A stretch of 26,012 nucleotides of DNA. Source: Oligoflexia bacterium. Lineage in GTDB: Bacteria > Bdellovibrionota > UBA1018. Positions 1 to 25,929 of the stretch are shown in pieces. The stretch's first letter is position 1, and each line of letters starts with the position of its first letter. The stretch lies in NCBI GenBank assembly GCA_043732485.1, contig JAYTHP010000196.1:1-26012 (forward strand). Reading direction: 5' to 3'. The notes under the pieces were generated by a model that saw only the letters and a list, made by a program, of their open reading frames with translations, was not told the origin of the DNA and ran no database searches. The translations under genes were made by a program, and so were the position numbers.

Positions 1-635
1 TTGAGCGGCTGGGGGTCAAACTTGGTCAAATCTAACCCCAAAGTCACCACCTGCACTTTTTGGCAAGCGATGGCGTGAGTGGCAAGCACATTGGCACGCA
101 GAGCGTGACTCATGACCAGCAGAGCATCGACCCGTTGGTAAAGGAAAGCGTGCCAGCTGTTTTTTTTGAGATGCTGGTTCCAGATGTGCCGACTCACGAC
201 TAAGCCCACGCTTGGACATCCCCACAGTGCAGGCACCAGCCACTTTAACAACGAGGGCTGATGAGCGTGCACCAGGTTGACGCCAAAACGTCCAATCAGC
301 AGGTGGAGAGCGCGAATCATGGTTACCTGCCACCCCCAACCCGGATGGATGACCCCAAGCGACGACCCTAGAGAAGGCAACGAAGGCTGCGACGCACAGC
401 AAGCGGCCAAAAAAGGACTCCCAGCAAAGCCCATCCAGGTGACTTGTGCCGCTTCACCCTGCACAGGATCGCCAGTGCCAACCGCCGCTTGCTCTTGCAA
501 GGCCAAGACGTCCTGGGCTGCCACCTGCTCCAGCCCGCCCCAGGAATGTGATAAGCAGACCACGAGCACTTTGAGCTTGCCCGGTAAGGCAGGCGGCGCG
601 ACGCTTGGCAGGGAGACCGTTTGCCCATCACTCAT
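1..635 (-). CDS. Glycosyltransferase family 4 (GT-B), N-terminal domain; runs off the left edge (partial)
   Basis: Not in the ORF track. Manual translation from ATG 635 is open to the window edge: MSDGQTVSLP...KLKVLVVCLSHSWGGLEQVAAQDV...VNLVHAHQ...LVVSRH...VDALLVMSHALR...KVQVVTLGLDLTKFDP. It shows the GT4 pattern GGxE, (D/N)xVHxH, D-x-x-x-x-x-S and GxDxxxF. An in-frame TAG lies upstream, so 635 is the start. Confidence 0.88.
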   Translation of the reverse strand, partial: MSDGQTVSLPSVAPPALPGKLKVLVVCLSHSWGGLEQVAAQDVLALQEQAAVGTGDPVQGEAAQVTWMGFAGSPFLAACCASQPSLPSLGSSLGVIHPGWGWQVTMIRALHLLIGRFGVNLVHAHQPSLLKWLVPALWGCPSVGLVVSRHIWNQHLKKNSWHAFLYQRVDALLVMSHALRANVLATHAIACQKVQVVTLGLDLTKFDPQPL

Positions 636-762: not shown

Positions 763-1986
763 TCACTTGCTGAGCGCCCCGCAGGTGAGCTCCTGAAAGA
801 CGGTCTCAGCCGAGATGCCTTGCAAACAGCCCAGATACTGTGCGCCCATTTGTGCGCACTGGTTTTTCTGGCACGGCCAGCACTCGACTGGATTGAAATG
901 AATTTGCACCTTGCCTGGACCTAGCGGTGCCGTCTTCTTAGGCTCCCCTGCCCCCCAGATGAGATGCACCGGGGAGCCACACAGGGCTGCGACATGCGCC
1001 AGCCCCGAGTCATTGCACACGGTGAACTGCGCCTGACGAAAGACCTGCCAAAAGCCCGCCACTTCCCCTTGATGGGTTAAATCCAGCCAACGGATGTGAG
1101 TCTGTTGCATCAAGAGCGCTGCCAGTTTTTGCTCAGCCTGACCACCGACGATCACCACTCTGGGGGGCTGCACACCACGTTGTTCTGCCCGCTGGGTGAT
1201 TTTTTCCGTTAAACTTAAAAACTGCTCCCAAGACCAGCGGCGTGAGACGGCTGCAGCCCCAGGCGCCAGTACCCAATAAGGCTCGCTGGGTGGCACCAGC
1301 GGCACCGCCTGACTCCAGGCCTGCTCGACTGGAAAACTGAACACCGAAGGCGGGTCCTCGAGCGGCTGGATGGCTTGCCAGAAGTCTTGTGCTTTCTCTT
1401 GCACTTTCAAAGCAGTAGGCAACGCAGCCACCCGGCGGCTGCCCCCCGCTCCCACTAAAAGTCGCACATAACTCTCCGAGCGGTGTAAATAGCGTGCTGC
1501 CTTCAGCGGGATGGCCTGAGTGAGCAAGAAAGAGCGTAAATCGCTGGCATACCCCACCCGCGTGCGAACCCCTGCCCGCCACATCAGCCAGGCTGCTGAG
1601 AAGGACGGCGGTAAGACAAAGGAGAGATCCCAGGAGCCGTGACCTTTGAGGTCTTCTAGCAAGGCGGCCTCAGCCTGCCTCGCCTGGCGCCACCGCCCCA
1701 TCAGCGACAGTTCTTCTTGCTTCAGCTTTACAAGCCCTGATCGCGCAGGCCGCTTGAGAACGAAAACTTCTTGCACCAGGTGTCGGTACTGCAAGGAGGC
1801 CACCCACTCGGGGCACACCACCGCAATGTGCGCGTACGGGTAAGTCTGCCTTAAGAAATAAAAAAAAGGATAGGCCATCACCTGATCCCCGATCCAATTC
1901 GGGGAGCGCACGAGAATGCGCTGGACGGCAGGCCCGGAACTGACCGCTGCGGAAGGGGACATTTTTTTACTCTCCTGACTCATCAT
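763..1986 (-). CDS. waaF: LPS heptosyltransferase, GT9 family (WaaF-like)
   Basis: RILVRSPNWIGDQVM, PPSFSAA, RVGY, APGAA..RRW, CNDSGLAHVAA, CWPC..C..CL. Start placed at ATG 1986 or 1983; the track's GTG is 2001. Confidence 0.85.
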   Translation of the reverse strand: MMSQESKKMSPSAAVSSGPAVQRILVRSPNWIGDQVMAYPFFYFLRQTYPYAHIAVVCPEWVASLQYRHLVQEVFVLKRPARSGLVKLKQEELSLMGRWRQARQAEAALLEDLKGHGSWDLSFVLPPSFSAAWLMWRAGVRTRVGYASDLRSFLLTQAIPLKAARYLHRSESYVRLLVGAGGSRRVAALPTALKVQEKAQDFWQAIQPLEDPPSVFSFPVEQAWSQAVPLVPPSEPYWVLAPGAAAVSRRWSWEQFLSLTEKITQRAEQRGVQPPRVVIVGGQAEQKLAALLMQQTHIRWLDLTHQGEVAGFWQVFRQAQFTVCNDSGLAHVAALCGSPVHLIWGAGEPKKTAPLGPGKVQIHFNPVECWPCQKNQCAQMGAQYLGCLQGISAETVFQELTCGALSK

Positions 1987-2067
1987 TCCACCCACACCCA
2001 CTTGAACCTATTTTTTGCCGAGAGGACAGCTCTTTTTCTGCAAAACCTTAGCCGCAAGCTAACCCCC

Positions 2068-3360
2068 TCAAGACGCGGGAGCAGCGGGCTTTTGTCCGGG
2101 CTCAAGCGCTTTTAGCTCGACCACCACCACGCCCACCTTGATTTTTGCTTCCAACCGCAGGGGAAAACGCCGCTCATCGTTGCTCAGCCAGAGCAATCCA
2201 CCTTCATTTTTCTTCAACACCCCGTCGCGCAAGAAATCGGGATGAATCACAAAAGCCTCTTGTTCGCCCCAGGGGGTTTGCACCTTTTCTTGGCGTAACA
2301 CGGTGGCAATCACCTCCCAGAACTTACCTTCTGACACCACCGGGAAGCGAATCTCTTGACCGACCCGAAGGGGCAAGAAACGCAAATAATGCAAGGCTGA
2401 GAAATTATCCTGAGGACACTCCGGGATTGCCGCCTGTTCGCGGGTGTCTTTCACCGGCTGATTCTTCGGCTGCACGTGGTTCCAGTAATGGGTCAATTGC
2501 AAACGCGAGTCATGAAGCTCAATAGATTCGCGCAGTTGCTTGGACTCATTGAGGTTAATTTGAAAGCGATGGGAATACACCCCTTGCCAGTCGACAAACG
2601 ACTCGACTTGATCCTTAAAACGGTAAAAAAGACTAAAAAGCGCCGAGCTGAAGACCTGTCCCCACAAGTGGTAGACTTTGCGACCCCCTAACCGCTGAAA
2701 CGGCTTGACCTCAAGCGTGATTTCCCCACCGCTGATCCCAAAACAAGAAAAATTATAGGTCAGTTTCTCCCCCACCCAAAGCGGTGAGCCCCCGTCACGC
2801 GGCAACTGGCACGGATGAAACTCCCGCGCTCCCCCGCCCCCCCCAGTGGCAAAACCCGCCAGCTGAGCCGCGGCCGGTCGCAAGGGATGTAGCAAAGAAT
2901 CACGAGGACGATCGGTGTCGTGGCGGCGCAGCAGGGGCTTGAGGCGGCTGGGGGCGCTCACGGGGAGGTCGCGTTGCGCAGCTTCCAACAAAGAGTCAGA
3001 CGGCCCCCTCCCCAAGGTTCCTCCTACCGCCGCAGCCTTCTGCTCCTCTTTACGAGCCGATGCGACGTGAGAGGCGCTGCTGCCACGCCCTTCTTCTTCT
3101 TGCCAAGGTGCGGCGGTAAACCGGGCTTGCAGCTCAGATCCTCCCCCCGGCAGAGCTCCCAAAAAAGAGGTCCCACCCCAGTCGTGCTCGAATTGAGGAC
3201 CCGGTGCTAAAGAAGCCCCCAATAGCTGTGCAGGTGCAGGCGCAGAAGACGGCCACGAGGACGGGGACTGGGGTAAAACGGCGCCCGTCGTACAACCCCC
3301 CAACGCCAGTCCCAGCGACCATGACGACAACGACTGGCTTAGGCGTAGCCTCCTCGTCAT
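2068..3360 (-). CDS. DUF3108-like protein, probable lipoprotein with a long low-complexity linker
   Basis: C-terminal ~235 aa (GEKLTYNFSCFGISGGEITLEV...QDNFSALHYLR...EKVQTPWGEQEAF...LWLSNDERRFPLRLEAKIKVG) fits DUF3108 as I recall it. ATG 3360 gives MTRRLRLSQSLSSWSLGLALGG-C (lipobox) and removes the overlap with lpxL. Confidence 0.75.
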   Translation of the reverse strand: MTRRLRLSQSLSSWSLGLALGGCTTGAVLPQSPSSWPSSAPAPAQLLGASLAPGPQFEHDWGGTSFLGALPGGGSELQARFTAAPWQEEEGRGSSASHVASARKEEQKAAAVGGTLGRGPSDSLLEAAQRDLPVSAPSRLKPLLRRHDTDRPRDSLLHPLRPAAAQLAGFATGGGGGAREFHPCQLPRDGGSPLWVGEKLTYNFSCFGISGGEITLEVKPFQRLGGRKVYHLWGQVFSSALFSLFYRFKDQVESFVDWQGVYSHRFQINLNESKQLRESIELHDSRLQLTHYWNHVQPKNQPVKDTREQAAIPECPQDNFSALHYLRFLPLRVGQEIRFPVVSEGKFWEVIATVLRQEKVQTPWGEQEAFVIHPDFLRDGVLKKNEGGLLWLSNDERRFPLRLEAKIKVGVVVVELKALEPGQKPAAPAS

Positions 3361-3431
3361 CGACTTTGGGAGCTTTCGGTTAAGACTTGCAAACACATCC
3401 ACAAAACATCCTCCACCCCTCTGCCTTAAGC

Positions 3432-4421
3432 TTAAGAGATGACCGCAGGAAAGTCCATCGACTTCCTGACGCGCGGCTTCTCCCACTCGTCCGCGCGCAG
3501 TGGCGAGAGGTCGCCTTTAAAGCGTCGATGCGTCCAAAGCCATTGCTCGGGATGTGCCCGGATGTGGCGCTCCAAAATAGCGGCGTAAGCTGCGGTATTG
3601 ACTGCCAGTTCCCGGTGCAAATCTCCCTCACTGCTCCCGCTCCCCACCTTGATCCAAGCACAAGGCTTCTCAATCACTACCGCGAGGCGCCCATCCGGTT
3701 TGCGGTAATTACTCACCGGCAAGACCACCGCACCGGTTCTTTTAGCCAAGGTGGCTAGCGCCAAGGACGTCCCGACTGGCACACCAAAAAAAGGTACCCG
3801 CACACCCACTGGCGCTCCGGTGTACTGATCAAGCACGAAGCCCACCGCTTGGTTTTTTTTCAAAGCGCGCAAGACGTCTTTGATCGTCTTAGGCTCGTAA
3901 GTGGCACCCACCCCGTAACGGTTGCGCCCCTGCTCAATCCAAGCATGCAACCAGGAAGGCTTGAGCCGCTTGGTCACCATCAAAAGCGGCACCTTGCCCA
4001 GCACCGCGCCTACCGCCAGCATGATCTCCCAATTACCCAGATGGCTTGAGAGAAATAAAATCCCCTTACCTCCCACCTGAGCGCGCCGAATCTCCTCCCC
4101 GCCTTGCAAATCGCAATTTCGCGCAATCCAAGCAGGCATCGGACCCAGTACCAAGGGAATCTCAACGCAAAGGTGCCCTAAATGATCATAATTCTTCCGC
4201 AATAACTCCGCTTGCAAGCCAAGCTGTCCGGGAAAAGCCAGCGCAAGATTGTTGACCACCACCGACCGCCTGAAGGCTAAGCGGTAGGCCACCCAGCCAA
4301 AGATCCGCCCCCAAAAGCCTTGCAAAAAACGTGGCTGGAGATAGAAACAAAAAAGCGCTCCGCGCACCCCACGCAACGCTAAAGCCAGCAGGAAATGGCG
4401 CGGCGCATTGGTCGCTATCAT
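3432..4421 (-). CDS. lpxL: Lipid A late acyltransferase (LpxL/HtrB family)
   Basis: NNLALAFP, GKGILFLSSHLGNWE (HxxxxE), VGFVLDQ, VPFFG, PEQWLWTHRRFK. ATG 4421 overlaps the upstream TGA (ATGA) and has GGGGAG upstream. Confidence 0.9.
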   Translation of the reverse strand: MIATNAPRHFLLALALRGVRGALFCFYLQPRFLQGFWGRIFGWVAYRLAFRRSVVVNNLALAFPGQLGLQAELLRKNYDHLGHLCVEIPLVLGPMPAWIARNCDLQGGEEIRRAQVGGKGILFLSSHLGNWEIMLAVGAVLGKVPLLMVTKRLKPSWLHAWIEQGRNRYGVGATYEPKTIKDVLRALKKNQAVGFVLDQYTGAPVGVRVPFFGVPVGTSLALATLAKRTGAVVLPVSNYRKPDGRLAVVIEKPCAWIKVGSGSSEGDLHRELAVNTAAYAAILERHIRAHPEQWLWTHRRFKGDLSPLRADEWEKPRVRKSMDFPAVIS

Positions 4422-7063
4422 CTGCGCCGCTCCCCCGTCCATTGACCGCAATTGTTGCCGCCTTCGCCTTCGTTGTGACGCAAAGCATCCGGTGCGCGGT
4501 GGCCTTGCGCCGAACTTGCTGACTCAGCAATAGCGGTTGCAGAGTGCGGCAATTTTTCATCAAACGTCTTCACCTGGACATCTTCACCCCCACCGTCACC
4601 AGGCTCGCACCCCAACTCACCCCACAACAGCCGCTCCCAAACCGCCACCGCCTCCTCCTCTTGAAAATAAAGCTCAGGCTCAATCACCCACACCCGCGCG
4701 CGCACCGCCCCCTGCTCCTCCCACTTCACCCAATCCTTCCCGCTCACCGTCACCCTTGCTCCTACTCGCTCTGCAGCCTCACACCACTGGGCAATCTGGC
4801 TGCGCGTCACGGGCGCATGATCGGGTAAAAAAACTGTCTGCGCAATCGTGCAGCCTAGGGCGTCTAAAAAATCCACCACCCGCTGGGGCTGAGCAATCCC
4901 CAACACCAACCATAAGGGTAGCTCAGGCCGCGTCATCTGGCTGGCCGCCGCTAACCGGGTGTAAGCCTGCAGCTGAGGCGTGTCACCGATGAACGGCTGC
5001 ACCGCTTCTCGAAGCTCTGAGGCTACGCCCACTTGCGTCCAGACCACAAGCTGGCAGTACCTGAGGACGCTATAAAAATCACGAAACAACACCTTGCCAA
5101 CACAACCACTCCTCCTACCACCTCGCTGCGCGTGGGTTAAGGCTACCACTTCGAGATCTTTATGAATTCGCCAGTGCTGCAGGCCATCATCGAGAATCAC
5201 CAGATCAATGCGTGGGCTTTGCCCACCTAACGAGCGCGTCGCAAGGAAACGCACCGCCTGATGAAATTGCCGGACTCGGTCAGCCCCGACTGCAACCACA
5301 GCTTGCGGACAGAGTTGATGCAACAGCACGGGCTCATCGCCTGCAAGCTGGGGTGACACTTCGGGCAATCCTGGACCGAGCAAGCCGCCGCAAGCGTCAT
5401 CAACGTTACTGCCCGCCCACCACGCCCTCCCCCAGCGCCCGCTCCGCCCCCACACTCCACCAAACCCGCGAGTGAGAATGATCACCTGCAAGCCGCGCGC
5501 TGCGGCTTCGCAGGCAATCTTCGCCACCAAGGGCGTTTTGCCACTGCCCCCGCTTTGCAGATTCCCGACACTCACCACCCGGCCAACCCCCGGCAGCACC
5601 TTGCCCTTCAGTACGCCACGGCTGAGCAGCCAGCGCACCCACCACGAGGCACTGGACCACAAAAATGACCCGACGAGGGTGGCCACGGCTGGCCCTTTTT
5701 TGACCCCCTGGCTTCCGGTTTGCCATCGGACTTCTGCTGCCTTCGCAAGGACCTGGGTTGCTAAAAAAAGACTCGGACTTCCGCGCTCTTCACCTGCTTG
5801 AGGCGGCACTTGCAACAGTGCCAGGCGTAAAGTCTGAAAATACTCGCGCTGCCTTGCTCGCGCTGGCTCGCTCTCCAGCAGCTGAATCAGCTCGCCCGTC
5901 AACCGCGCCTCCGTCACCTCATGCATTAAAATCTCAGGAATCGCAGGCAGCCCTAACCCCTGGCCAGGGAGCAGGGCCTGGCTTGATACCCCTGCGGTCT
6001 TTGGTAACGTCGTCACTGCGACTAGATGCGGTCCGTTGACTGCTAGATTGACCAGCCCGACCGGCCCACGGTAACGCACCAGGTGACGGAAAAGCCATCC
6101 TGTCAAGCGACTCGGACGATAGACCACGCAGTGCGGTAGATCCAAGACTCCCGCTTCAAGCGTTGCCGTGCCCGATTTGATCAGCCCGCACTCAGCGGCA
6201 CGCAAGCAATCAGCGGCATTTCCGACACTTGGCACGAGCCTCACCGTCGCTTGATACCGCTCTTGCAGGCGTTGGATGGCTGGCAAAGCTGCTTGTTGTT
6301 GCGCGCGAGTTGCAAACGGCAACAACACCACCGCCTCCTGTTGGAGCTTCCCCATTGCTCCTGCCACCGCAGCCACCATCACCTCTAAATGGGCCTTCAG
6401 CTCAGCCGGACGACTCCCGGCCATCAAGACCACCCAGCGACACTGCGCAGACGGCTGAGGGAGTGAGGCGAGCGACGCCTGCGCCTCAGCCCGGGTGCGC
6501 GCCAGATCGAGCTCATCCACGAGCGGGTTTCCGACATAAGTCACCTTGCTCAGCCCAAGTTTTTGATAAAAAGCCACTTCAAAAGGAAATATACAAAACA
6601 AGTGCTGAAAGTAACGCTGCAAGAACCGCACTCGACCGGTCCGCCAGATCCAGGTTTTTGGCGGAATGTAGCAAAACACCGGGATATGGAGTTTTTTCAG
6701 GCGCTTGGCTAAGCGAAAGTGAAATTCCGGGTAATCGACCAAAACGGCAAAATCAGGGCGACGCTCGCGCGCGGCTTTTTCCAGCGCCTCTAACGCCCGA
6801 AAAATCCGGGGGAGGGCACCGAACACTTCCGTCGAGCCCATCACCGCAAGCAGAGCACTGCTTTTTGCTTGACCCCGCCCACCGACCACCGACTCAAGCC
6901 CTGCGGCCTGCAAATGCTCCCCACCCATGCCAAAAGCGGTGAGCGTGCCTGGCCGTAACGACTGCAAAGCCCTCAGCAGCTCGGCTGCATGCTGATCGCC
7001 TGAAGCCTCGCCGGCGGAGATCAGACAACACTCATGGAAACTGTGGCGGGTGACTCGTGGCAC
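4418..7063 (-). CDS. lpxB-lpxK: Fused lipid-A-disaccharide synthase (LpxB, ~aa 1-440) and tetraacyldisaccharide 4'-kinase (LpxK, ~aa 455-815)
   Basis: LpxB motifs: ISAGEASGDQH, LVDYPEFH, YIPPKTWIWR, IFPFE, GNPLVD, AGSRPAE, SGTATLE, GLVN. LpxK motifs: VVSVGNLQSGGSGKTP, LTRGFG, GDEP, GADR, ILDDGLQH, GIAQP, LPDH, SGKDWVK. No stop between them. GTG start 8 nt after the lpxA stop, with AAGGGG upstream. Confidence 0.9.
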   Translation of the reverse strand: MPRVTRHSFHECCLISAGEASGDQHAAELLRALQSLRPGTLTAFGMGGEHLQAAGLESVVGGRGQAKSSALLAVMGSTEVFGALPRIFRALEALEKAARERRPDFAVLVDYPEFHFRLAKRLKKLHIPVFCYIPPKTWIWRTGRVRFLQRYFQHLFCIFPFEVAFYQKLGLSKVTYVGNPLVDELDLARTRAEAQASLASLPQPSAQCRWVVLMAGSRPAELKAHLEVMVAAVAGAMGKLQQEAVVLLPFATRAQQQAALPAIQRLQERYQATVRLVPSVGNAADCLRAAECGLIKSGTATLEAGVLDLPHCVVYRPSRLTGWLFRHLVRYRGPVGLVNLAVNGPHLVAVTTLPKTAGVSSQALLPGQGLGLPAIPEILMHEVTEARLTGELIQLLESEPARARQREYFQTLRLALLQVPPQAGEERGSPSLFLATQVLAKAAEVRWQTGSQGVKKGPAVATLVGSFLWSSASWWVRWLLSRGVLKGKVLPGVGRVVSVGNLQSGGSGKTPLVAKIACEAAARGLQVIILTRGFGGVWGRSGRWGRAWWAGSNVDDACGGLLGPGLPEVSPQLAGDEPVLLHQLCPQAVVAVGADRVRQFHQAVRFLATRSLGGQSPRIDLVILDDGLQHWRIHKDLEVVALTHAQRGGRRSGCVGKVLFRDFYSVLRYCQLVVWTQVGVASELREAVQPFIGDTPQLQAYTRLAAASQMTRPELPLWLVLGIAQPQRVVDFLDALGCTIAQTVFLPDHAPVTRSQIAQWCEAAERVGARVTVSGKDWVKWEEQGAVRARVWVIEPELYFQEEEAVAVWERLLWGELGCEPGDGGGEDVQVKTFDEKLPHSATAIAESASSAQGHRAPDALRHNEGEGGNNCGQWTGERRR

Positions 7064-7071
7064 TTTTCCCC

Positions 7072-7845
7072 TTACTTGACGACGCCAGCCTCACTACTGC
7101 GAATAAATTGCACCAGCTGCTGCACCTCAGGCACCCCACTCCACTGGCTTTCCATGCTGACTAAACACTTTTCCTTCGTCAGCTCCGACTTACTCCAAAA
7201 CTTAATCGCTTCATTGATTTTCTGGATGCGCTCCACCGCAAAGCCGCGGCGCTTCAGCCCCACAATATTCGCACCCTTTAATAGGCAAGGTCTGCCCCCC
7301 AAGGCCACACTAAACGGTGGAATGTCTTTTTCAATCCCCGACTGCCCGCCAATGTAGGAGTAGGCACCGAGCCGCACGAACTGCGAGATCCCGCACATCC
7401 CACCGACCGTCACGTAATCTTCCAAGATCACGTGCCCAGCCAGGCCGCCGTAATTGGCAATAATACAATGATTACCAATCACACAGTCATGCCCTAAATG
7501 AGTATAGGCCATGATCAAACACTCATCGCCCACCGCTGTGACCCCGCCGCCGCCTACCGTGCCGAGGTTCATCGTTACCCCTTCTCGAATCACATTTTTG
7601 CTTCCTAGGGTGAGACGCGTCGGCTCGCCCTTGTACTTAAGATCCTGCGGGATTGCGCCTAAGCTACAAAACGGAAACACCACGTTGTCTGGGCCTAACT
7701 CCGTCCAGCCCTCAATAATCACGTGGCTGCGGATTTGGCAGCGCTCCGCGATCTTCACATGGGGTCCGATGATCGTCCAAGCGCCTATCTCAACGGACGG
7801 ATCAATCTGAGCATCGGGATGGATCTGGGCAGTGGGATGGATCAT
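7072..7845 (-). CDS. lpxA: Acyl-ACP--UDP-GlcNAc O-acyltransferase
   Basis: MIHPTAQIHP start with AAGGA SD upstream of ATG 7845; hexapeptide repeats, PQDLKYKGE, HLGHDC, LAGHV, KDIPPF, NIVGLKRRGF. Confidence 0.96.
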   Translation of the reverse strand: MIHPTAQIHPDAQIDPSVEIGAWTIIGPHVKIAERCQIRSHVIIEGWTELGPDNVVFPFCSLGAIPQDLKYKGEPTRLTLGSKNVIREGVTMNLGTVGGGGVTAVGDECLIMAYTHLGHDCVIGNHCIIANYGGLAGHVILEDYVTVGGMCGISQFVRLGAYSYIGGQSGIEKDIPPFSVALGGRPCLLKGANIVGLKRRGFAVERIQKINEAIKFWSKSELTKEKCLVSMESQWSGVPEVQQLVQFIRSSEAGVVK

Positions 7846-7953
7846 GAAAACGGTCCTTTCAAAAAAAACCAGGTCAAAAAAACTCAGACCTTCCAAGTCT
7901 GTCACGCCTAGGCTTCAGCCAGCGCCAGTCGAGTCGGCTAGCGGCTTGGGTGC

Positions 7954-8481
7954 TTAAGCCCTGTTTTGCAACGTCGCCAGATTAGAGATTAAATTAGCCA
8001 AGATCTCAGCCTCTGCCACCTTCTGCCCCGCGACCAGCACCTTGCACTGAAACGCCCACAACTTGCCACGACAACGCACCACTTCCGTTTCAATCCGCAG
8101 CTGATCTCCCGGCACCACAGGCTTACGAAAGCGCGCATGATCCACCCCCGCCAGCACGCAAGCAAAATCCTTGAGATCGGCCTCCTGATGCAAAGCAAAA
8201 CTCGGGTAAACCGAAAAACTAGCCGTCTGCGCCATCGCCTCTAAAATCAGCACCCCCGGCATGATGGCAAACTCCGGAAAATGTCCTTGAAAAAAAGGCT
8301 CATTGTAACTTACATTCTTTAAAGCCACCACCTGAGTACCGACCTTGGCACTAGGCGGAGCAGCATCTTGCTCTCCCACCGGATTAATCTTTAAAACGCG
8401 GTCAATCAGTAAAAAAGGCTGACGGTGCGGTAAAAACTTGCGAACTTGATCAATATTGAGCGCGTACTTTTCTGTTTCCAT
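7954..8481 (-). CDS. fabZ: 3-hydroxyacyl-ACP dehydratase
   Basis: LPHRQPFLLIDRV, KNVSYNEPFFQGHFP..MPGVLILEAMAQ, ARFRKPVVPGDQL. Confidence 0.96.
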   Translation of the reverse strand: METEKYALNIDQVRKFLPHRQPFLLIDRVLKINPVGEQDAAPPSAKVGTQVVALKNVSYNEPFFQGHFPEFAIMPGVLILEAMAQTASFSVYPSFALHQEADLKDFACVLAGVDHARFRKPVVPGDQLRIETEVVRCRGKLWAFQCKVLVAGQKVAEAEILANLISNLATLQNRA

Positions 8482-8596
8482 AATTTTTTTTAACTGGCGA
8501 GGCCTCAGACGTCTTCAGCGCTCTTTTTTGTCTTTCTTCAGTGAGACGAAATTTTTTCTCCCCTTCCCCACAACACTCCTGCACACCACTGACTCT

Positions 8597-8624
8597 CTAC
8601 CTACCTACCTAACTAGCTGCCTGC
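8597..8624. repeat. Decaying 4-bp tandem repeat in the lpxD-fabZ spacer
   Basis: ctac ctac ctac ctaa ctag ctgc ctgc. Confidence 0.5.
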
Positions 8625-8677
8625 TAGGCCACCAAAACTCTCCCAAATTGGGTCGAACCCGCTTTTCCGGCTCTCAC

Positions 8678-9856
8678 TCACTCAGCGGCCCCCCTCCTCT
8701 TCAGCTGGCGATTCAACCACCCATGCACCCGAAAATGATCCCGCACCGAACGCTGCGGATTCCCCACCACCTTCTCGCCTGCTGCCACATCTTTCGAGAG
8801 CAAAGTCTGGGCCCCCACCTGTGCCCCGGCTCCCACATGTACATGATTGACAATCGCCGTCATGCCACCGATATAACAAAAATCTCCAAGCTTGGCGTTC
8901 CCTGCCACACAAGTGCCGCCACACACAATCGCCCCCCTGGCCACTTGCACGTTGTGACCGAGGTGCACTAAATTATCAAGCTTAGCGTGATCACCTACCC
9001 GTGTATCAGCGATCGTCCCGCGATCAATCGTGGAATTGGCTCCCACCTCCACCTCGTCGCCCAAGACCACCCGACCAAAGTGATGAATCTTCTGGTGCCC
9101 CCCACACGGAACACCGCGATCACCGTCGCTGTCTACCGCTTTTTTTCGGGCAGCATAGCCAAAACCATCCGCCCCCAGCACACAACCCGCATGCAGCCGC
9201 ACCCGCTTGCCAATCCAGGTGCCGTCGTACATCACCACCCGGGGGAAGAGCACCGATTGCTCCCCAATCTGGCAATCTTCACCCACCACGCATCCCGGAT
9301 AAAGCCTCGCGCCTGCCTCAATCACAGTTCCCGCACCCACTACACAGTGCGCCTCGATTACCACGCCACTTGCGAGCTGCACCCCGTCTCCGATCACCGC
9401 ACTCGCGTGAACCTGCGGGGGAGAAAGCGTCAGCGACATTGGAGAGTGGGTGGTTTGCGGGAGATGACTACTTTTGAGCTGAGCTTGCGCAAAATGCTCC
9501 GACAGCACAGCCATCGCGAGATAAGGATCGCTTGCCGCCACCACCACCGTGCGACCCCAGAAAGGGAAGGGCACTGCAAGCAGGGGCGTCACAAAATCAA
9601 AACCCGTGACCAGGATCCCTGCCCCAACACTTGCAAGTTCCGCTTGATATTTTCGGGAAAAGAAAAACACCAGATGCTCAGGCTGAGATCCCGCAAGCGG
9701 CGCGAAACGCCTGACCTGGGCTTGCTGGGGATCAGCAAAAAAACGCTGAGCGCTCTTTTGCTCGGTTTTTCCATCGCTTTTCTGGTCGCTTGGGCCCACC
9801 ACCCGACAGCGAATCTGGTGCTGCTCCAAGAGCGCTAAAACTTCCGCAACAGTCAC
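8678..9856 (-). CDS. lpxD: UDP-3-O-acyl-glucosamine N-acyltransferase
   Basis: DPYLA, hexapeptide repeats, GADGFGY, VEVGANSTIDRG, KLDNLVHLGHNV, GNPQR. Start placed at GTG 9856 with AAGGAG upstream; the track gives 9919. Confidence 0.94.
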   Translation of the reverse strand: MTVAEVLALLEQHQIRCRVVGPSDQKSDGKTEQKSAQRFFADPQQAQVRRFAPLAGSQPEHLVFFFSRKYQAELASVGAGILVTGFDFVTPLLAVPFPFWGRTVVVAASDPYLAMAVLSEHFAQAQLKSSHLPQTTHSPMSLTLSPPQVHASAVIGDGVQLASGVVIEAHCVVGAGTVIEAGARLYPGCVVGEDCQIGEQSVLFPRVVMYDGTWIGKRVRLHAGCVLGADGFGYAARKKAVDSDGDRGVPCGGHQKIHHFGRVVLGDEVEVGANSTIDRGTIADTRVGDHAKLDNLVHLGHNVQVARGAIVCGGTCVAGNAKLGDFCYIGGMTAIVNHVHVGAGAQVGAQTLLSKDVAAGEKVVGNPQRSVRDHFRVHGWLNRQLKRRGAAE

Positions 9857-10026
9857 TGGCCACGACTCCTTGCTGCACTCGGCGCAACACCCTAACAAAA
9901 CGCTTGCCCACCTGTGCATTTTTTAGGCACAGCTTTACAAGCAAGCGTTGTTCAATTTTTTAATGACTTCTCAGTAAGATGACTGGGTGAGGGCTAAGAG
10001 CAACCTCCGATCAAGAGACCCAGCGC

Positions 10027-10596
10027 TTAGGACTTCGACTCTGACTTGTTCTCTTTATCAAACTCGACAATCACGTCCGTGGTCAAGTCAGCCTTGGGAT
10101 CCGAGTAAAGCACCACGTTTTGATTCTTTTCAAAAACAAATTCATAGCCACGCTTTTTCGCTTCCTTCTCAATCACCACCCTCAGGCTATTGATGATCGG
10201 CTGCGTCAGGTCAGCTTCCTTCTGCTGAATTTCATTTTGCGCCTTAGCCGCCATCTCCTGAAACTTCATGATGCGCTCTTGCAGATCGTTTTGCTTCTGG
10301 GAGCGAGCTTTTTCACTCATGGCAAGAGACTTTTTCTTAAACTCTTCGCCCTGCTTCTTAATCTCCGCTTGCTCTTCTTGCACTTCCTTATTACGGGCGC
10401 CTAGGTATTTCTCAAACTTCGCTTTGGCTTCTTTGCCCGTCGTCACGGTCTGCAAGGCGTGTTGCATGTCCACCACGCCGATCCTCGTTGGATCGCCAGC
10501 TCCGGCAGGGGCAGCCAGCAGCAAAAGAGCCAAACCGCTAGTCACACCACTCACTAAACTCACTCGAACAGGATTCCAAAAATGATTCATTTGCAT
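10027..10596 (-). CDS. skp: Skp/OmpH periplasmic chaperone
   Basis: Signal peptide, RIGVVDMQ, long K/E/Q coiled coil, GYEFVFEK..VVLY...DLTTDVI; position between bamA and lpxD. GGGAG SD upstream of ATG 10596. Confidence 0.92.
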   Translation of the reverse strand: MQMNHFWNPVRVSLVSGVTSGLALLLLAAPAGAGDPTRIGVVDMQHALQTVTTGKEAKAKFEKYLGARNKEVQEEQAEIKKQGEEFKKKSLAMSEKARSQKQNDLQERIMKFQEMAAKAQNEIQQKEADLTQPIINSLRVVIEKEAKKRGYEFVFEKNQNVVLYSDPKADLTTDVIVEFDKENKSESKS

Positions 10597-10827
10597 ATGA
10601 TTCTCCCAGTAAAACAAGGAAATCATAAACTCACCCCGTCTGACAACACAAAAAATTAAAATAAATAGGGATCCCTCTACCCAAGCTCAGCGCGCTCTAC
10701 CCCGCCCCCCCCGCGCCTGCACAAAACTCCGAGCCTTTCTCACGCACCGCCCGCCAACAAAAAAGAGAAGGCAAGGCAGACAAAAGAAGAGCAAGAGGGA
10801 GAGCGAGGACGCGGAGACATCCTTCTT

Positions 10828-10851: not shown

Positions 10852-13365
10852 CTAAAACGGCGGTCCGATGAAAAACTGGAAGACCGGGCTGGGGTTCCCC
10901 GCCGGCGCATTGAGCGGAAAGCCCCATTCAAAGCGCAGCGGCCCAATTGGTGAAAACCAACGCAACCCGAAGCCTGCATCCATCATGAGTGGGGCGTTCA
11001 GCGGCCAGCTATTCCAGGAATTGCCGATATCATAGAACAACACTAGCTTGACGCCCGCATCTTTTAGGATCGGATACTCTAACTCAAAGAGCGAAAAAGC
11101 CTCGAAATCCCCGCCAGTCGGCTGCGGCACTGGCTGGTTCCCAATGCTTGCCGGAGGCAGCTGGGGACCGAGCTGAAACAGTTGAAAGCCCTTCATGTTA
11201 TTGGGACCCCCCAGGTAAAAGCGCTGCGACGGGGGCGTTATCCCTGGGCGCAAGTTGACCAGTTGCCCCACTTCCAGGTTAGTGCGAAACACCAGATCAC
11301 CGATCACGCGGTGGTAAAAACGGTTATTAAAGACCGTCTTGGCAAAAGCCAAATCGCCCCCTAACCCCGCAAACTCGGTCGAGAGACTTTGATAACTGCC
11401 GCCTGTGGTTTCAAAGCGATTATTGCGCTGATCCCTCACCACGCTCAGCACCAGGCTGGATAAAATCCCGTGATCGGCGTTCATTTGCGAAAACAAGAAG
11501 GCCTTATCCACCCCGTCAATGCCATCGATCGCTAAATCGCGGATCCCTTCAAATTTATAAGTCAAAAACACGTTGGTGTAATCGGAGATCGGATGGCCTA
11601 ATTTAACGTCAGCCCCACTTTTTTGGGTGTTCCAACGGTACGGGATCGGCACCTTGACGTGATACAAGTCAGCGCCCGTGACCCAGCGCGAATCAAAGGT
11701 GTAAGGCTCGGTAAACCCTAAATTGAAGCTTTGCGAGAGTTGCGAGATCGAATACTGAGCCGCCAGACTGATGGTTTGCCCTTGCCCTAGCACGTTAATT
11801 TCAGAAATTTGGGTGGTAAAAAATGGCCCTTGCACCGAACCAAACCCTGCCCCCAGCGTCACCGTCCCAGTCGAGCGCTCCTTAACTGAGATTTCGACAT
11901 TTAAGACGTGGGGATGATCTTTTTGCGGAACGGTATTAAAACTCACCTCGCCTGGCGCAAAGTAACCCAAACGCTCGACGTTCTCGCGTGAAATCCTCAT
12001 CCGCGTACCATTAAACAGCTCGCCTTCGACAATTTTCAGCTCCCGGCGAATCACTCGGTCTTGGGTTTTGGTGTTATTAATGATGTTAATCTCACCTAAG
12101 TAAGCTAAATAGCCCTTTTCAAAGCCATAATCGAGGTCAATCCGCTTGCTATCCTCGTGAACATTCATCTTGGGGATGACGTTGACAAAAGCGTAACCCA
12201 AGTCCTGATACTTTTCCGTCAACGCCTGAATGTCGGCATTACGGTTGGAGATACTGAAAACCTCATCGTGCTGTAATTTCAAGTCGTGCAGCAACTCATC
12301 TTTCGGGAACAAAAGATCGCCACTGACCTCAAGCTCCCCGATGCGATAGCGCTCGCCCTCTTCGAGGTAAAGCGAAATAAAGAGCCATTTCTTGTCGTCA
12401 CTCATGGTAACGACCGGATGGTCAAGCTTAAACTTAATAAACCCGTGATCCAGGTACCAGAGACTGAGCCGCTGCAAATCCTGCTTAAAAGCCGACTCCT
12501 TGAAGTTCCCCGAGCTATTGAGCGCCGAGAGCAGCCCACCTTCGCGGGTGTCAGCTAAGACACTTTTCAGCTGCTCATCGGTGAATTGGTGGTTATTCAG
12601 GAAGGTGATTTTCTTGATCTGCACCTTATCATAGTCTTGCACCCGGTAGATGAGCTCTACTTCCTCGTCACTGAGCGGCTTGATCTCGTAACTGACCCGC
12701 GCCAGGTAAAAGCCCTTTTCCTCATAATGCTTTTGAATCCGTAAAACGTCTTGCTGCACCTTGTGAATGTCAAGAATCGACCATTCTTTCAGCTTCACCA
12801 CATCTCTTAAGTCATGGGTGCTAATGCGATCGTTCCCGGCAAAGTTGAGCTCAGCAATCACCGGCCGCTCCCGCACCACGATCCAAACTCGCACCCGCTG
12901 GCTTGCGGTCTTGGTCAGCTCCACCGTCACGTCATCAAAGAAACCTAAGCGAAAGACGGCGCGAATCGCCTCACGCACCGACTCAGAGGTGAGCAGCTCC
13001 CCACGCTTCAGCGGTATTTTCGCTAAAACCGCCTCCTTTTCAATGCGTTTCAGCCCGCGAACCCGCACGTCAGTAATCCTTGCATCAGTGAAAGACAAAG
13101 CAGCCGTCGTCGGTAAGGGTGAGGGTGCCACCGCCGCTGCGCTGGGTTGCAGCGTTAATTCTTGAGTAATAGACTCCGGAATTTCAGACGGCGCTTCAGC
13201 AGCCGCAGCAGGCCTGAAATAAAAACCCACCGGACTTATCGTCATCAAAAAAGCGACCAAAAGCGAAGAAACTGATTTTTGAGGAATCAGACGAGGGGGT
13301 AACGGATGGGGGTTTTGAGCAATCACTGACTTTAATCTGTAGTTTGCCGAGCAAGGCTGTGTCAA
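10852..13365 (-). CDS. bamA: Outer membrane protein assembly factor BamA (start codon uncertain)
   Basis: POTRA repeats (GLKRIE, GFFDDV, YEEKGFY, KTQDRVIRRE, LGYF, VKERSTG), FTEPY, RFYLGGPNNMKGF, GFGLRWFSPIGPLRFEWG, terminal Phe. Confidence 0.96.
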   Translation of the reverse strand: MTQPCSANYRLKSVIAQNPHPLPPRLIPQKSVSSLLVAFLMTISPVGFYFRPAAAAEAPSEIPESITQELTLQPSAAAVAPSPLPTTAALSFTDARITDVRVRGLKRIEKEAVLAKIPLKRGELLTSESVREAIRAVFRLGFFDDVTVELTKTASQRVRVWIVVRERPVIAELNFAGNDRISTHDLRDVVKLKEWSILDIHKVQQDVLRIQKHYEEKGFYLARVSYEIKPLSDEEVELIYRVQDYDKVQIKKITFLNNHQFTDEQLKSVLADTREGGLLSALNSSGNFKESAFKQDLQRLSLWYLDHGFIKFKLDHPVVTMSDDKKWLFISLYLEEGERYRIGELEVSGDLLFPKDELLHDLKLQHDEVFSISNRNADIQALTEKYQDLGYAFVNVIPKMNVHEDSKRIDLDYGFEKGYLAYLGEINIINNTKTQDRVIRRELKIVEGELFNGTRMRISRENVERLGYFAPGEVSFNTVPQKDHPHVLNVEISVKERSTGTVTLGAGFGSVQGPFFTTQISEINVLGQGQTISLAAQYSISQLSQSFNLGFTEPYTFDSRWVTGADLYHVKVPIPYRWNTQKSGADVKLGHPISDYTNVFLTYKFEGIRDLAIDGIDGVDKAFLFSQMNADHGILSSLVLSVVRDQRNNRFETTGGSYQSLSTEFAGLGGDLAFAKTVFNNRFYHRVIGDLVFRTNLEVGQLVNLRPGITPPSQRFYLGGPNNMKGFQLFQLGPQLPPASIGNQPVPQPTGGDFEAFSLFELEYPILKDAGVKLVLFYDIGNSWNSWPLNAPLMMDAGFGLRWFSPIGPLRFEWGFPLNAPAGNPSPVFQFFIGPPF

Positions 13366-13447: not shown

Positions 13448-15652
13448 CTAGCGCCAAAACGAGTTGAGCAGCTGTTTTTCTTGGATAATTTGTGAATCGC
13501 GGTCTACCCGTGGCACCTCGGCGCGGCGGTGAAAGACACAACGCACATCCACCGCTTGCTCCAAAGCCGGACGTAACCGACCCTGGGCGTCACTGAGGAG
13601 CACGCCCTTAAAAGGCTCGTTTTCCTCCAAACTAGCGCTTTTGAAGAAGTCTTCGTCATCCAGACTATCCAGCGCACTCGGTTCCGACTGCCGATACCAG
13701 AAGCTTTGATCTGCCCGCGCCACGATTTCTTTTTTGGAAACTGTAAGCTGTTGTGAACTGAAGGCCTGGATTCTCATCCACTCCAAACCGCGATTCAACC
13801 ACTCGACTTCCTCAAACTCCGGTAAACTGCCGCCCAAGCGCTGACAAAAATCGGCCGCTTTTTTGCCGCTTGAGGCCTGCCTTAAAACCCCGCTGATCCA
13901 AAACCGCGAAGCTGGAGCCGGCCGCCCCGCAAACGGATCACTGACTTCAAAAACCGGAATTCGCGAGCGATCCACTGCAAGCTTCAAGTAAGGCGGGTAA
14001 GCCATCGTCTCGCTCAGCCTGACCCCGTCCCCCGCTCTTTTAGCCGCACCGTGAAGACTGGCAGCGGCTGACGACGATTCCCCCACCCTTCCAGCGCGGG
14101 CCTCTTCATCCCAAAGCTGGTCGCTTGAGACCACATCAGGCATCAAGCGATGAAAAAGGTGCCCAAGCTTCTGGCGACACTCCGACTTCGGACACTTCAC
14201 AGCGTGATAAGATCCTTCTTGCAGCAAGCTGCTCGCGTTGTCTAATGAGTTGCCTAATGAGCCTGCCATCAAAGCGCCCGATGCGCTGTCGCTACTGCTG
14301 CTGCTGTCGCTGTCACTACTAATTTTTTTCTTAAAAAGCCACAAATCAAAGCAGCGCTTACAAAACGAGTGTCCACACTCCCCGCTCACGAGCTCTCCTA
14401 AGCTGAAGCGATTGGTCAGCAGCGTCATGAAGCGACCCGGCGCACAATGACAAAAAAAGCACACCGATTCTGCCATCACCGCTGAGATCAAATCATCGCC
14501 TGCTCCGGCTAAAACTCTGGTCTGAGCCTGCGGCCGCAAATCAAAGAACACCGGGCGAGGCGTGGACTCAACCGAGCCCGCGCTGACCCGCCCCCTTCCC
14601 TCCGCTTCAAAAGCGGCAAGCACCGAAACCCCACTCAGCTCCGCTTGCGGCGCCTGCGAATCACACGAGGAGGCAAGCGACACCAGCCCCGAGGAGCCAC
14701 TGGAACCCTGCAGGAGGCGCAAATCACGAAAAGCACTTTGCAAATTAGCCAATAAATACGACTGCTTATGATCAATAGCCATCAGTATTTCCCGTACAAA
14801 ATGCTCTTCTGTTTGAAAAAGCTCGGAGCTGATCAACTGAAACACGACCCGCGGGTGCCGATTGTGGGCCGCAAGCAGCACGGGTGTATAGTTTTGATAA
14901 ATCTTCAGTCCGCCCTGCAACGTTACTTGGGTGAACACCACACCTAAGTCGGCTTTTTGTCGCAGGAGCTCTTGTACCACTTCTCTCAGGCCCAGCGCTG
15001 CAGCTAGCGTGAGAGGGGCCCACTGATCTTTGCGTTTTTGATTCAAAGCAAACGGCGCCGTCCCCTCAGGCGAGGCGCGTAGCCGCTGCAAGACTTGGGC
15101 AAGCTTTTGCTGCACCTCAACGCGCGAACGCGTGAACGGCTGGACCCTCAAGGTGAGTGCCCCTAAGTCGGTGAGCTGCTCCATGAACTGCTCAAACAAA
15201 TCCTGCTCTTCTCCTGACTCAGCCACTGCCCCCTGCAGTGCCCCGTTCGGTAACCCAGTCGACATGGCTTGCTGCTGAGACTGAGGCACCCCCCCCCCTT
15301 CCATCCCCGAACCAACCCGCGACGAGCGCTTGAGGTTCTCAGGCAAAAGTGCGGCAGCAAAGACTGGGTCCACAACGAGAGCAGGAGAGACACCCGAGGA
15401 AAACCCAGCGGAGAATCCACCTGACGCAGGGTGAGGCGCGGCGGCCTCGGGTGAGGCTGGCGCTGAGTGAGACGCGTGCTCCGCTAACTCCAAGAGCCTG
15501 GGCTCAGGTACACTGAGCTTGGGGGAGGCCTGAGCAGTACTCCCAAAAAAGCCTAACAAGCACTGCAGCTGAGTGGCGATCAGCAGGTGCGCAAGTCCGG
15601 CCGGTTGAGGAAACAGCTGAGCAGAACGAGTCAAACTTTTTTTCAGTTTCAT
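13448..15652 (-). CDS. Putative secreted ankyrin-repeat / RING-finger / C-type-lectin-like protein (734 aa)
   Basis: Basic N-terminus, hydrophobic stretch and AQA site; ankyrin-like WAPLTLAAALGLREVVQELLRQKAD and YTPVLLAAHNRHPRVVFQLI; C398-x2-C-x24-C-G-H-x2-C-x2-C-x52-C-P-x3-C492; C-terminal AADFCQRLGGSLPEFEE...FWY...VRCV. Confidence 0.8.
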   Translation of the reverse strand: MKLKKSLTRSAQLFPQPAGLAHLLIATQLQCLLGFFGSTAQASPKLSVPEPRLLELAEHASHSAPASPEAAAPHPASGGFSAGFSSGVSPALVVDPVFAAALLPENLKRSSRVGSGMEGGGVPQSQQQAMSTGLPNGALQGAVAESGEEQDLFEQFMEQLTDLGALTLRVQPFTRSRVEVQQKLAQVLQRLRASPEGTAPFALNQKRKDQWAPLTLAAALGLREVVQELLRQKADLGVVFTQVTLQGGLKIYQNYTPVLLAAHNRHPRVVFQLISSELFQTEEHFVREILMAIDHKQSYLLANLQSAFRDLRLLQGSSGSSGLVSLASSCDSQAPQAELSGVSVLAAFEAEGRGRVSAGSVESTPRPVFFDLRPQAQTRVLAGAGDDLISAVMAESVCFFCHCAPGRFMTLLTNRFSLGELVSGECGHSFCKRCFDLWLFKKKISSDSDSSSSSDSASGALMAGSLGNSLDNASSLLQEGSYHAVKCPKSECRQKLGHLFHRLMPDVVSSDQLWDEEARAGRVGESSSAAASLHGAAKRAGDGVRLSETMAYPPYLKLAVDRSRIPVFEVSDPFAGRPAPASRFWISGVLRQASSGKKAADFCQRLGGSLPEFEEVEWLNRGLEWMRIQAFSSQQLTVSKKEIVARADQSFWYRQSEPSALDSLDDEDFFKSASLEENEPFKGVLLSDAQGRLRPALEQAVDVRCVFHRRAEVPRVDRDSQIIQEKQLLNSFWR
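15289..15298 (-). repeat. G10 homopolymer inside the 5' part of the ANK-RING gene
   Basis: Coding strand ATG GAA GGG GGG GGG GTG; the longest G/C run I found in the window. Confidence 0.85.
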
Positions 15653-21223: not shown

Positions 21224-22087
21224 CTAATGCCAGACGTCAGGGTCGTCGGTATCCTGCGGATGCGCTCGGTCGTCCTCAAAATCTTGCTCGCCCGGGTGAC
21301 GGTGGCTGACCACCAAGCGGAGGTGTTTGGGGCGTTTGGACGATGAGGGTGACGACGACGCTCCCCACTCCCACCAGCGACGAGGACGGGTCGACTGAGT
21401 GCGCCTGCCGCTCATCCCGCCCCCACCACCCACCCGCCAGACTTTCCAGGCGGCAGGCACCACCAACGTGAGCCAACCGACCAACATCCCTAAGAGATGC
21501 CCTGCGGTTGCTGCTAAGCCCCCGCTGGAGTAAAAGGTGGTCATCACCTCCATCAAGACTAGAATCCAGATGAAAACTTTGCCCTTCACCGGAAAAAGCA
21601 GCATTAAGAGCAAGATCCGCTCACCAAAAATCAAACCATAGGCGGCCAGTAACCCGTAATTCAGGACTGAGATCCCCTGCAGACTGGTCACTAACACCAG
21701 GCTTTCCCATTGTGCCTGGCGCAACGCTACTTGCAGCAGCAAGAACAACACCGCTGATCCCACCGTGACCACGCCTAAGAAGCGCAAAAAGCGCCTTGAG
21801 CCCCAAAAGCTCTCTAACTCACCGCCAATGAACAGGAGCAGCAGCAACTGAAAAAAAAGTTGACTGACATCGTCATGAATGAGGGGGTAACTGAACAACT
21901 GCCAGTAATAGCCGTGATGCAACACCCCACCCCAGCTCAGGCTCAAAGTCTGGCTCAGATGATAGCCTAAGTACTGGTCGGCGGTTTGATGAACGATAAA
22001 AAAAAGAAAAAGAGTTAACAGTAAGGATTTAAGGACCGGCGTGACCCGAAAGAAGCGGGTGATTTGAGAGAGAAGAGGTGATTGCAT
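21224..22087 (-). CDS. Rhomboid-family intramembrane protein
   Basis: About 6 TM segments, YWQLFSYPLIH, GGELESFWGSRRF, GIS (catalytic Ser position), GHLLG (catalytic His position), soluble C-tail. GGAG SD upstream. Confidence 0.85.
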   Translation of the reverse strand: MQSPLLSQITRFFRVTPVLKSLLLTLFLFFIVHQTADQYLGYHLSQTLSLSWGGVLHHGYYWQLFSYPLIHDDVSQLFFQLLLLLFIGGELESFWGSRRFLRFLGVVTVGSAVLFLLLQVALRQAQWESLVLVTSLQGISVLNYGLLAAYGLIFGERILLLMLLFPVKGKVFIWILVLMEVMTTFYSSGGLAATAGHLLGMLVGWLTLVVPAAWKVWRVGGGGGMSGRRTQSTRPRRWWEWGASSSPSSSKRPKHLRLVVSHRHPGEQDFEDDRAHPQDTDDPDVWH

Positions 22088-23148: not shown

Positions 23149-23397
23149 TGCGATCATCCCCCTATTGCAGGCGCTCGTGGCTTGAGGCCGTTGTTTTGCG
23201 TTTGCCATTACCCCAGCAGCCCCGAGCCCGCCTCAAACTTTGGGGCTTTCTCCTCCGAAACTGGAGCTATTTTCACGCTAGCAGATCACTTCTAGGGGAG
23301 CAACAAGATGAAACAATTAATCGTGATCCGGAACACTGCTTCAACGCTCAAATTATTTGTTGCTAATTCCTGCTATTTATCACATCTTTAGAAAACT

Positions 23398-25454: not shown

Positions 25455-25929
25455 GTGCGGTAAGAAAAGCGGTTGCAAAAAAGTTAAAAAAAGCCTGCTC
25501 ACTGGTTGTCACTCCCCCGATTAAGGTTTCATTGTCACAGGGGTGGGAGTCAAAGCACGTACCCAACTTCAGCTTCAGCGGTCGACGTCTAAAACTGACC
25601 CACTCTCAGGGAAGTCATCGGCTCTCCACCAGTATTTCTAAAGCAAGCCATGTGTAATTTATGACATCGTGGCCATGTGCAACGGCTGCGGCCAGTGACG
25701 ATACCTCACCTCACTGCCACAACACTATCTTCTCAAAAGAGAATAGCAAATTGAGCAATCTTTTGAGGGACTCAGGATGCACTCACATGATATTTTGGAC
25801 TAGAGTGGAAAGGGAAAAAGAGAAGAGGGGAGAGAAAAAAAGAAAGCCCATCCCTAAACGATGGATTACAAAAAATTCGCTTTGTATGGAAAAAACGAGA
25901 CTGAGGAGATCTGAAGAAAGAAAAAAAAT

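Follow-up and report, generated by a model that had tools for sequence, protein, structure and literature searches.

Introduction

The window analysed here, a stretch of 26,012 nucleotides from an Oligoflexia bacterium (GTDB lineage Bacteria; Bdellovibrionota; UBA1018; assembly GCA_043732485.1, contig JAYTHP010000196.1, positions 1 to 26,012), raises the question whether LpxB and LpxK, consecutive enzymes of lipid A (endotoxin) synthesis, are encoded there as one protein and, if so, how the two genes were joined and what the joining does. The contig is one of 250 in a 2.58-Mb genome that is 89% complete. On its minus strand, 4418..7063 forms a single open reading frame (ORF) of 881 codons with a GTG start, and the plus-strand frame over the same interval holds many stops. 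Here we report that this ORF is a real, intact gene that carries LpxB and LpxK in one frame. Comparison with related loci indicates that such fusions probably originated on several occasions, each from a pair of adjacent, overlapping genes.

The fused gene and its product

Both halves were recognised by Pfam far above the cut-off: LpxB (PF02684) at residues 13-343 with 206.6 bits (cut-off 22.6), and LpxK (PF02606) at residues 466-805 with 154.8 bits (cut-off 27). The NCBIfam model for lpxK, TIGR00682, scored 113 bits, above its cut-off of 91.95. Each of the two families has one match in the genome, at its present completeness, and both lie within this ORF. By alignment, Escherichia coli LpxB residues D98, W126, S200, R201, T277, E281 and N316 correspond to D110, W138, S217, R218, T299, E303 and N339 of the fusion. 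Aquifex aeolicus LpxK residues K51, T52, R72, D99, E100 and R119 correspond to K509, T510, R532, D576, E577 and R596, and D138, D139, H143 and H261 to D625, D626, H630 and H749. All catalytic residues checked are in place, and most are invariant or nearly so across 59 fused proteins; their functional roles are those assigned in PMC6286764. A preliminary description of the window, made from the sequence alone, had reported complete LpxB and LpxK motif sets in one 881-codon frame, and the domain matches and conserved residues bear it out. Compared with 58 fused relatives, the protein carries about nine insertions and a 65-residue C-terminal tail, which account for its 881 residues against a median of 734.

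An AlphaFold2 model built on a 59-row alignment reached a mean predicted local distance difference test (pLDDT) of 83.9 and a predicted template modelling score (pTM) of 0.71, with 117 residues at pLDDT <50. In it, residues 430-452 form a helix, the loop of 451-455 has low confidence, the LpxK helix spans 456-481, and the tail is disordered from residue 818 onwards (pLDDT <50 over 817-881). The predicted LpxB half superposes on E. coli LpxB (5w8n) with Z 24.1 and a root-mean-square deviation (rmsd) of 4.7 over 300 aligned residues, and the LpxK half on A. aeolicus LpxK (4ehy) with Z 30.7 and rmsd 2.5 over 296. Model residues 456-818 align to 4ehx from residue 1 to 315, N-terminal helix included (Z 26.9).

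The LpxB half thus shares with E. coli LpxB (PF02684, TIGR00215; PDB 5W8N/5W8S/5W8X) the GT-B fold and the catalytic and uridine diphosphate (UDP)-binding residues, and its gene is likewise placed 3' of lpxD-fabZ-lpxA, but the chain of the fusion runs on into LpxK. E. coli LpxB is a dimer whose last 87 residues are swapped (PMC5785501); the single-chain model of the fusion shows no swap (whole-chain rmsd about 21 to 5w8n), the likely outcome of a monomer prediction either way. With A. aeolicus LpxK (PF02606, TIGR00682; PDB 4EHX/4EHY/4LKV) the fusion shares the P-loop kinase fold over the whole chain and the catalytic residues; it differs in that the putative N-terminal membrane helix is tied to LpxB via a short loop, with no free end, and in the extra tail. 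As a separate observation, a further match of the LpxB half (5723-7027, minus strand) is to a subunit of mitochondrial complex I from Tetrahymena that bears the name 'Lipid-A-disaccharide synthase' (7tgh_T1, 8gym_T1, 8b6f_A0; Z 25-26, about 400 aligned residues, profile E 1e-18); complex I there employs a fold like that of LpxB.

Distribution among relatives

The order holds 116 genomes, 111 of them with an LpxK match and five without. We examined 101, this genome included, leaving out 10 whose lpxK is fragmented or abuts a contig end. A further 10 genomes represent the class's two remaining families, giving 111 loci; a locus was called fused where both domains lie in the same ORF. Fused genes were found in 30 of the 101 genomes of the order and in 0 of the 10 from the other families. 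By family (f numbers are our own labels), the fused fraction is 6/62 in f1, 18/18 in f10 and 1/2 in f12; the single genomes of f3, f6, f8, f9 and f11 are all fused, and f2, f4, f5 and f7 are split. Among 68 genera, many with one genome, 14 are fused, 54 split and none mixed.

In the other classes of the phylum, 210 of 221 sampled genomes match LpxK. Judged by frame length and then by loci, five of these carry the fusion, and every one belongs to family f19; for a few of the 210, truncated at a contig end, no call could be made. In a sixth f19 genome the only break is a scaffold gap. Separately, none of the 10 genomes of family f22 (G133, G140, G147, G153, G159, G165, G171, G177, G182, G187), which are 90-98% complete, matches LpxK at E 1e-15, and it is possible that the late lipid A steps there are lost or strongly diverged.

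Among 280 retrieved proteins, 77 have the two-domain LpxB-LpxK architecture. None could be placed outside the phylum, in searches that were seeded from the phylum and returned mostly proteins without an organism name. Public protein records yielded 24 other proteins with both Pfam families and the same architecture, named as one enzyme or as hypothetical; named homologues carry the labels Bdellovibrionales, Bdellovibrionota, Bacteriovoracia or Oligoflexia, which point to the phylum. Compared with these, the present copy apparently has a separate origin, in a mostly split family, and bears the extra insertions and tail.

Some calls need care. Frame length misled as a fusion test for G166, where a 735-codon frame lies in another phase and the genes are split; long LpxB frames in G003 and G053 were misleading too. 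G144, a seeming split partner of fused G137 in the same genus, was rejected since its break is a 10-N scaffold gap inside lpxK. In G091 a run of N stands 22 nucleotides before the lpxB stop; its split call is doubtful, and it is still counted among the 81 split loci.

Origin of the fusion

The preliminary description had suggested that loss or relocation of genes such as msbA or kdtA from between lpxB and lpxK formed the fusion. This is not borne out as the immediate cause: lpxB stands directly 5' of lpxK in 110 of the 111 loci of the class and in all 26 loci taken from the phylum's other classes, and since this adjacency is near-universal, msbA and kdtA were not between the genes at the time of fusion. 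('MsbA' labels on ORFs of 220-300 codons were set aside as ABC-domain cross-hits at the lolD position upstream of bamA.) The one exception, G042 (L122:7569-13565), has about 6 kb between the two genes, with GHMP kinase, SIS, epimerase and nucleotidyltransferase genes; the four ORFs scanned there are sugar-nucleotide enzymes. The adjacency itself may go back to a much earlier loss of intervening genes, by analogy with Geobacter, which has lpxB-X-X-lpxK (PMC3087551, Opiyo 2010, Table S2).

A start codon overlaps the lpxB stop in 71 of the 81 split loci (58 at -4), and 68 of the 81 are in the frame given by the -4 overlap; stop/start overlaps of this kind couple translation (PMC10666635). Between the last LpxB helix and Walker A lie a median of 64 codons in fused loci (25 of 30 measurable) and 61.5 in 68 split loci of the order. 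Because of these overlaps and the near-equal spacing, a small frame-joining insertion or deletion (indel) of one or two bases at the stop/start overlap, with almost no sequence lost, is the likely step by which the fusion was made.

Proposed function

Reasoning from sequence, we think it fairly probable that the gene yields one tethered two-enzyme protein at the inner membrane, which hands over its intermediate by short diffusion; in this we infer single-chain expression, both activities, the geometry, the mutational step and any benefit. The single chain would sit on the inner face of the inner membrane, where its LpxB half would condense UDP-diacylglucosamine with lipid X, giving the disaccharide 1-phosphate that the tethered LpxK half would phosphorylate to lipid IVA. 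Since the disaccharide 1-phosphate is a membrane lipid, it would probably move between the sites by short diffusion in the bilayer and not through a tunnel. LpxB and LpxK are both surface-active at membranes, and substrate extraction by LpxK may be incomplete (PMC6286764). The membrane patch of E. coli LpxB belongs to the N-terminal domain, against which the last helix of the protein packs (PMC5785501, PMC6286764), so an LpxK attached at that helix would likely start near the membrane. The ancestral genes would have overlapped stop-on-start, and a one- or two-base indel there would have joined the frames. Fusion probably recurs because LpxB at its C-terminus and LpxK at its N-terminal helix can accommodate a join, and because both enzymes were already made in step; it would then cost little and fix a 1:1 ratio.

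The tolerance of both ends is suggested by their occurrence with other partners. LpxB is found fused at its C-terminus to an MsbA-like ABC transporter and to KdtA, and a further kind of LpxB fusion has an N-terminal PAP2 domain (P0126, P0177, P0226, P0186 for the three kinds); LpxK shares protein clusters with KdtA and with GT9. The KdtA-LpxK and GT9-LpxK pairings, like LpxB-LpxK, put a glycosyltransferase with LpxK, and the LpxC/FabZ and KdtA-LpxK fusions are likewise neighbouring pathway genes merged, with partners that differ from those here. Both of these had been named beforehand as the known fusions of the pathway. The lpxC/fabZ fusion is found in Opiyo 2010 (PMC3087551), and clusters carry both the KdtA and LpxK families; in the available portions of its text and in Table S2, lpxC/fabZ is the only fusion listed and Bdellovibrio is not named. 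One further database protein, P0125, is an LpxK-LpxL fusion.

Several observations weigh against the proposed picture. L320 of the fusion stands at the position of E. coli LpxB F298, and F534 where 55 of 59 fused proteins carry Tyr. The best family for the LpxB half, TIGR00215, scores 184.3 bits (E 3e-54), about 6 bits below its cut-off of 190.25; its match stops at residue 343, cut short by an insertion at residues 344-366. Helix 464-481 is hydrophobic, with a hydrophobic moment (0.36) below the protein's own 90th percentile (0.43). No close fused/split genome pair from which the mutation could be read was found among the genomes compared. Two further points concern selection. The pTM, reached despite the 117 low-confidence residues, hints at a fixed two-domain arrangement. 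Mere tolerance of joining also does not obviously explain why lpxB/lpxK is the only fused junction, which leaves room for selection. At the 11 other junctions of the cluster (41-96 loci each) there are 0 fusions, against 30 of 110 at lpxB/lpxK, a contrast to be read as several events versus none and not 30 versus none, kin not being independent. At several of the unfused junctions the overlap is about as common (lpxD/fabZ 66/94, fabZ/lpxA 59/96, lolC/lolD 58/72). LpxA and LpxD are trimers and FabZ is a hexamer; oligomer state or topology could instead forbid fusion at the other junctions.

These last points bear on selected channelling, in which the two domains would dock in a fixed geometry for direct transfer of the disaccharide 1-phosphate, and selection would repeatedly favour fusion since the intermediate, when free, does harm or acts as a regulatory signal. 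The repeated fusion of this one junction of 12, the short linker with its conserved spacing and the pTM speak for it. Depletion of LpxK in Acinetobacter baumannii accumulates disaccharide monophosphate (DSMP) and lipid X and inhibits growth (PMC5555675), and a model proposes the disaccharide as a feedback signal for LpxC turnover in E. coli (PMC4412817). Yet the genes are separate in 71 of the 101 genomes of the order, parsimony at equal costs calls for two to three reversals, the linker sequence is not conserved, and the LpxB and LpxK termini fuse to other partners. The model of an independent f19 fusion has a pLDDT of 84 with a pTM of only 0.52 and a low-confidence linker, from a 15-row alignment. 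We regard selected channelling as doubtful, though it fares best among the alternatives. A complex prediction for the split LpxB and LpxK of G028 (67-row alignments) scored 0.00 against a mark of 0.32 and was used neither way.

Number of origins

A tree was built from ten linked operon genes for 66 of the 111 rows, with the linker excluded, by a quick IQ-TREE run under LG+G4. The fused or split state requires nine changes on it; 300 shuffles required 15.2 on average and never fewer than 10. Rooted on the split outgroups, equal-cost parsimony gives six to seven gains and two to three losses in the order; a gains-only reconstruction needs 12 gains and a single-gain one 14 losses. A soft-polytomy count of nine was left unused, as support values were probably displaced on re-rooting. 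This genome lies in starred clades with split neighbours. In an approximately unbiased (AU) test on a 22-row subset, one clade of five fused f1 genomes was rejected (p-AU 1.6e-6), as were G000+G036+G103 (p 0.0046) and this genome (G000) with G010 (p 0.0023). The last two groups were chosen after the tree had been seen; this genome's own branch is long (0.6) and so are its sisters', base composition varies, and the markers are linked genes. Fusions of f19, a family of another class, branch at a great distance from the order and are taken as a separate origin.

That the fusion is instead a single ancient one in the order, kept here and split many times elsewhere, appears improbable, less credible than channelling. 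The deepest branches of a 55-row clade are fused (f10, f9, f6, f3, f8), which makes an early fusion there likely, and if a gain costs three times a loss, parsimony returns one gain and 14 losses. Against this, most of the 14 splits would have to recreate the -4 overlap of the unfused outgroups, this genome is nested in three starred clades that are otherwise mostly split, and f19 is not covered. What fits best, on these trees, is that the genes first fused early, at the root of the 55-row clade, and later split and fused anew, with about seven origins in all.

The internal start codon

Translation agrees with the earlier observation of a junction with no stop and no in-frame ATG: no Met occurs from M380 until the C-terminal part of LpxK. 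The GTG with a weak Shine-Dalgarno (SD) sequence noted there is V460 (5684-5686), preceded by an A6 run, and its SD is no better than chance. With a generic anti-SD it pairs at -5.4 kcal/mol, 22nd of 84 internal ATG, GTG and TTG codons. A conserved internal start or slippage was rejected, since the 30 fused loci have no common start-codon position.

It is very unlikely that the locus gives two products, in which case the internal GTG at 5686 would also yield free LpxK, or cleavage at the linker would divide the chain, and the fusion would be partly nominal. V460 lies 45 codons before Walker A, within the range of lpxK starts in split relatives, and the linker loop is of low confidence. Opposed to this are the rank of its SD, the lack of a shared start position, five of the 30 fused loci with no start codon within 30 codons of the anchor Trp, and the absence of any stop to release LpxB.

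Sequence support

Contigs of runs X1 (depth 18) and X2 (depth 16) cover 4300-7200 unbroken, with 0 differences and 0 gaps; both runs are possibly the source of the assembly. Their agreement, without a stop or frameshift, bears on the question of read support across the junction that was raised with the first description. Two runs of other studies, X3 and X4, contributed brief, nearly identical stretches at 6022-6226 and 5454-5695 that do not bridge the junction. No RNA data set was listed as carrying this sequence. The fusion is no assembly error, because two runs agree and 30 of the 101 genomes of the order are fused. An assembly or consensus error joining two overlapping genes has next to no credibility: 56 of the 62 f1 loci are split, one wrong base would suffice, both spanning runs may be the source, and the genus is represented by this genome only, but the run contigs are identical at depth 16-18, the state is uniform within genera, and family f10 is fused throughout.

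Genomic context

The gene order is bamA-skp-lpxD-fabZ-lpxA-[lpxB-lpxK]-lpxL-like-DUF3108-GT9-GT4 (Table 1), and the downstream order is the same in most relatives.

Table 1. Coordinates of the fused gene, its parts and the neighbouring genes in the window
Feature	Position	Strand	Remarks
lpxB-lpxK fusion gene	4418..7063	-	881 amino acids, GTG start; Pfam and NCBIfam profile matches
GTG start with purine-rich SD-like stretch directly 3' of lpxA stop	7061..7075	-	anti-SD pairing -7.1 kcal/mol (generic anti-SD)
LpxB domain, GT-B fold, residues about 13-447	5723..7027	-	E19, S21, D110, W138, R218, T299, E303, N339
Linker, residues about 448-459	5687..5722	-	AlphaFold2 model
Internal GTG (V460), possible relic start	5684..5686	-	45 codons 5' of Walker A; SD unremarkable
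LpxK domain, P-loop kinase, residues about 460-816, N-terminal helix included	4616..5686	-	K509, T510, R532, D576, E577, R596, D625, D626, H630, D748, H749
LpxK Walker A motif	5534..5554	-	alignment
LpxK Walker B motif	5174..5200	-	alignment
65-residue C-terminal tail (817-881)	4421..4615	-	not in relatives; predicted disordered; overlaps next ORF by <=34 nucleotides
bamA	10852-13365	-	upstream
skp	10027-10626	-	upstream
lpxD	8678-9919	-	upstream
fabZ	7954-8481	-	upstream
lpxA	7072-7905	-	directly upstream
LpxL-family acyltransferase	3432-4451	-	downstream
DUF3108	2068-3486	-	downstream
GT9 heptosyltransferase-like	763-2001	-	downstream
GT4	3-635	-	downstream; cut by contig end

Other contigs of the genome carry lpxC and kdtA, as well as an msbA-like gene and an LpxH-like phosphoesterase, both below cut-off. 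LpxI had no match in the genome, which at 89% completeness leaves its absence unproven, and a search for the LapB zinc ribbon was uninformative, as it matched 10 of 14 controls too.

Several genes in 763-9919 (minus strand) appear longer than in relatives; the LpxD frame, for example, has 414 codons where most have 350-400. DUF3108 stands 3' of lpxK or lpxL in most loci, and in two genomes an LpxL-family acyltransferase is fused to it (L167 of G206, L182 of G188); it may have a role in lipopolysaccharide or envelope assembly. A Gfo/Idh/MocA oxidoreductase lies between lpxA and lpxB in both loci scanned for it (L164:8266-9252, L160:6120-7130), and an ORF of like size occupies that position in most other classes; in the order of the window lpxA directly precedes lpxB. 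We take this oxidoreductase to be GnnA-like, and its presence or absence may mean a different lipid A backbone.

Elsewhere on the minus strand of the window, a 734-residue orphan at 13448-15652, between lolD and bamA, has weak matches to ankyrin (E 3e-4) and RING-like (E 7e-4) domains, which are eukaryote-like. A 620-residue ORF at 23640-25502 has no Pfam or NCBIfam match and, by eye, a lipoprotein-like N-terminus. A divergent CarD-like protein (22477-23208, E 3e-4) and a rhomboid-family protein (21224-22087) stand upstream of trxB-lysS-lolCD.

Significance

No published description of an LpxB-LpxK fusion was found in our literature search, though a genome paper or supplement could still mention one. 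The fusion is apparently undescribed in print though present in public protein records. Within the order the architecture is not rare. The chemistry is ordinary and no new reaction is implied, and the records illustrate how single-enzyme or hypothetical names can hide a pathway step.

A larger reading is that in Bdellovibrionota LpxB and LpxK work as a unit, their genes kept stop-on-start throughout the phylum and joined on about seven occasions or more while the other junctions of the operon stayed unfused in this class, with selection favouring direct hand-over of a harmful disaccharide 1-phosphate; we hold this to be rather unlikely. A modelling paper proposes LpxH-LpxB channelling and has LpxK rate-limiting under regulation (PMC4412817), and on LpxK depletion its substrate builds up and growth arrests (PMC5555675). 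If the larger reading were true, the fusion would offer, in one chain, a ready means of obtaining the first structure in which two membrane steps of lipid A synthesis are coupled.

The repeated switching between an overlapping gene pair and a fused gene offers a clean example of how fusions originate, and a natural LpxB-LpxK chain with split close relatives makes the physical coupling of membrane steps in lipid A synthesis testable by simple comparison.

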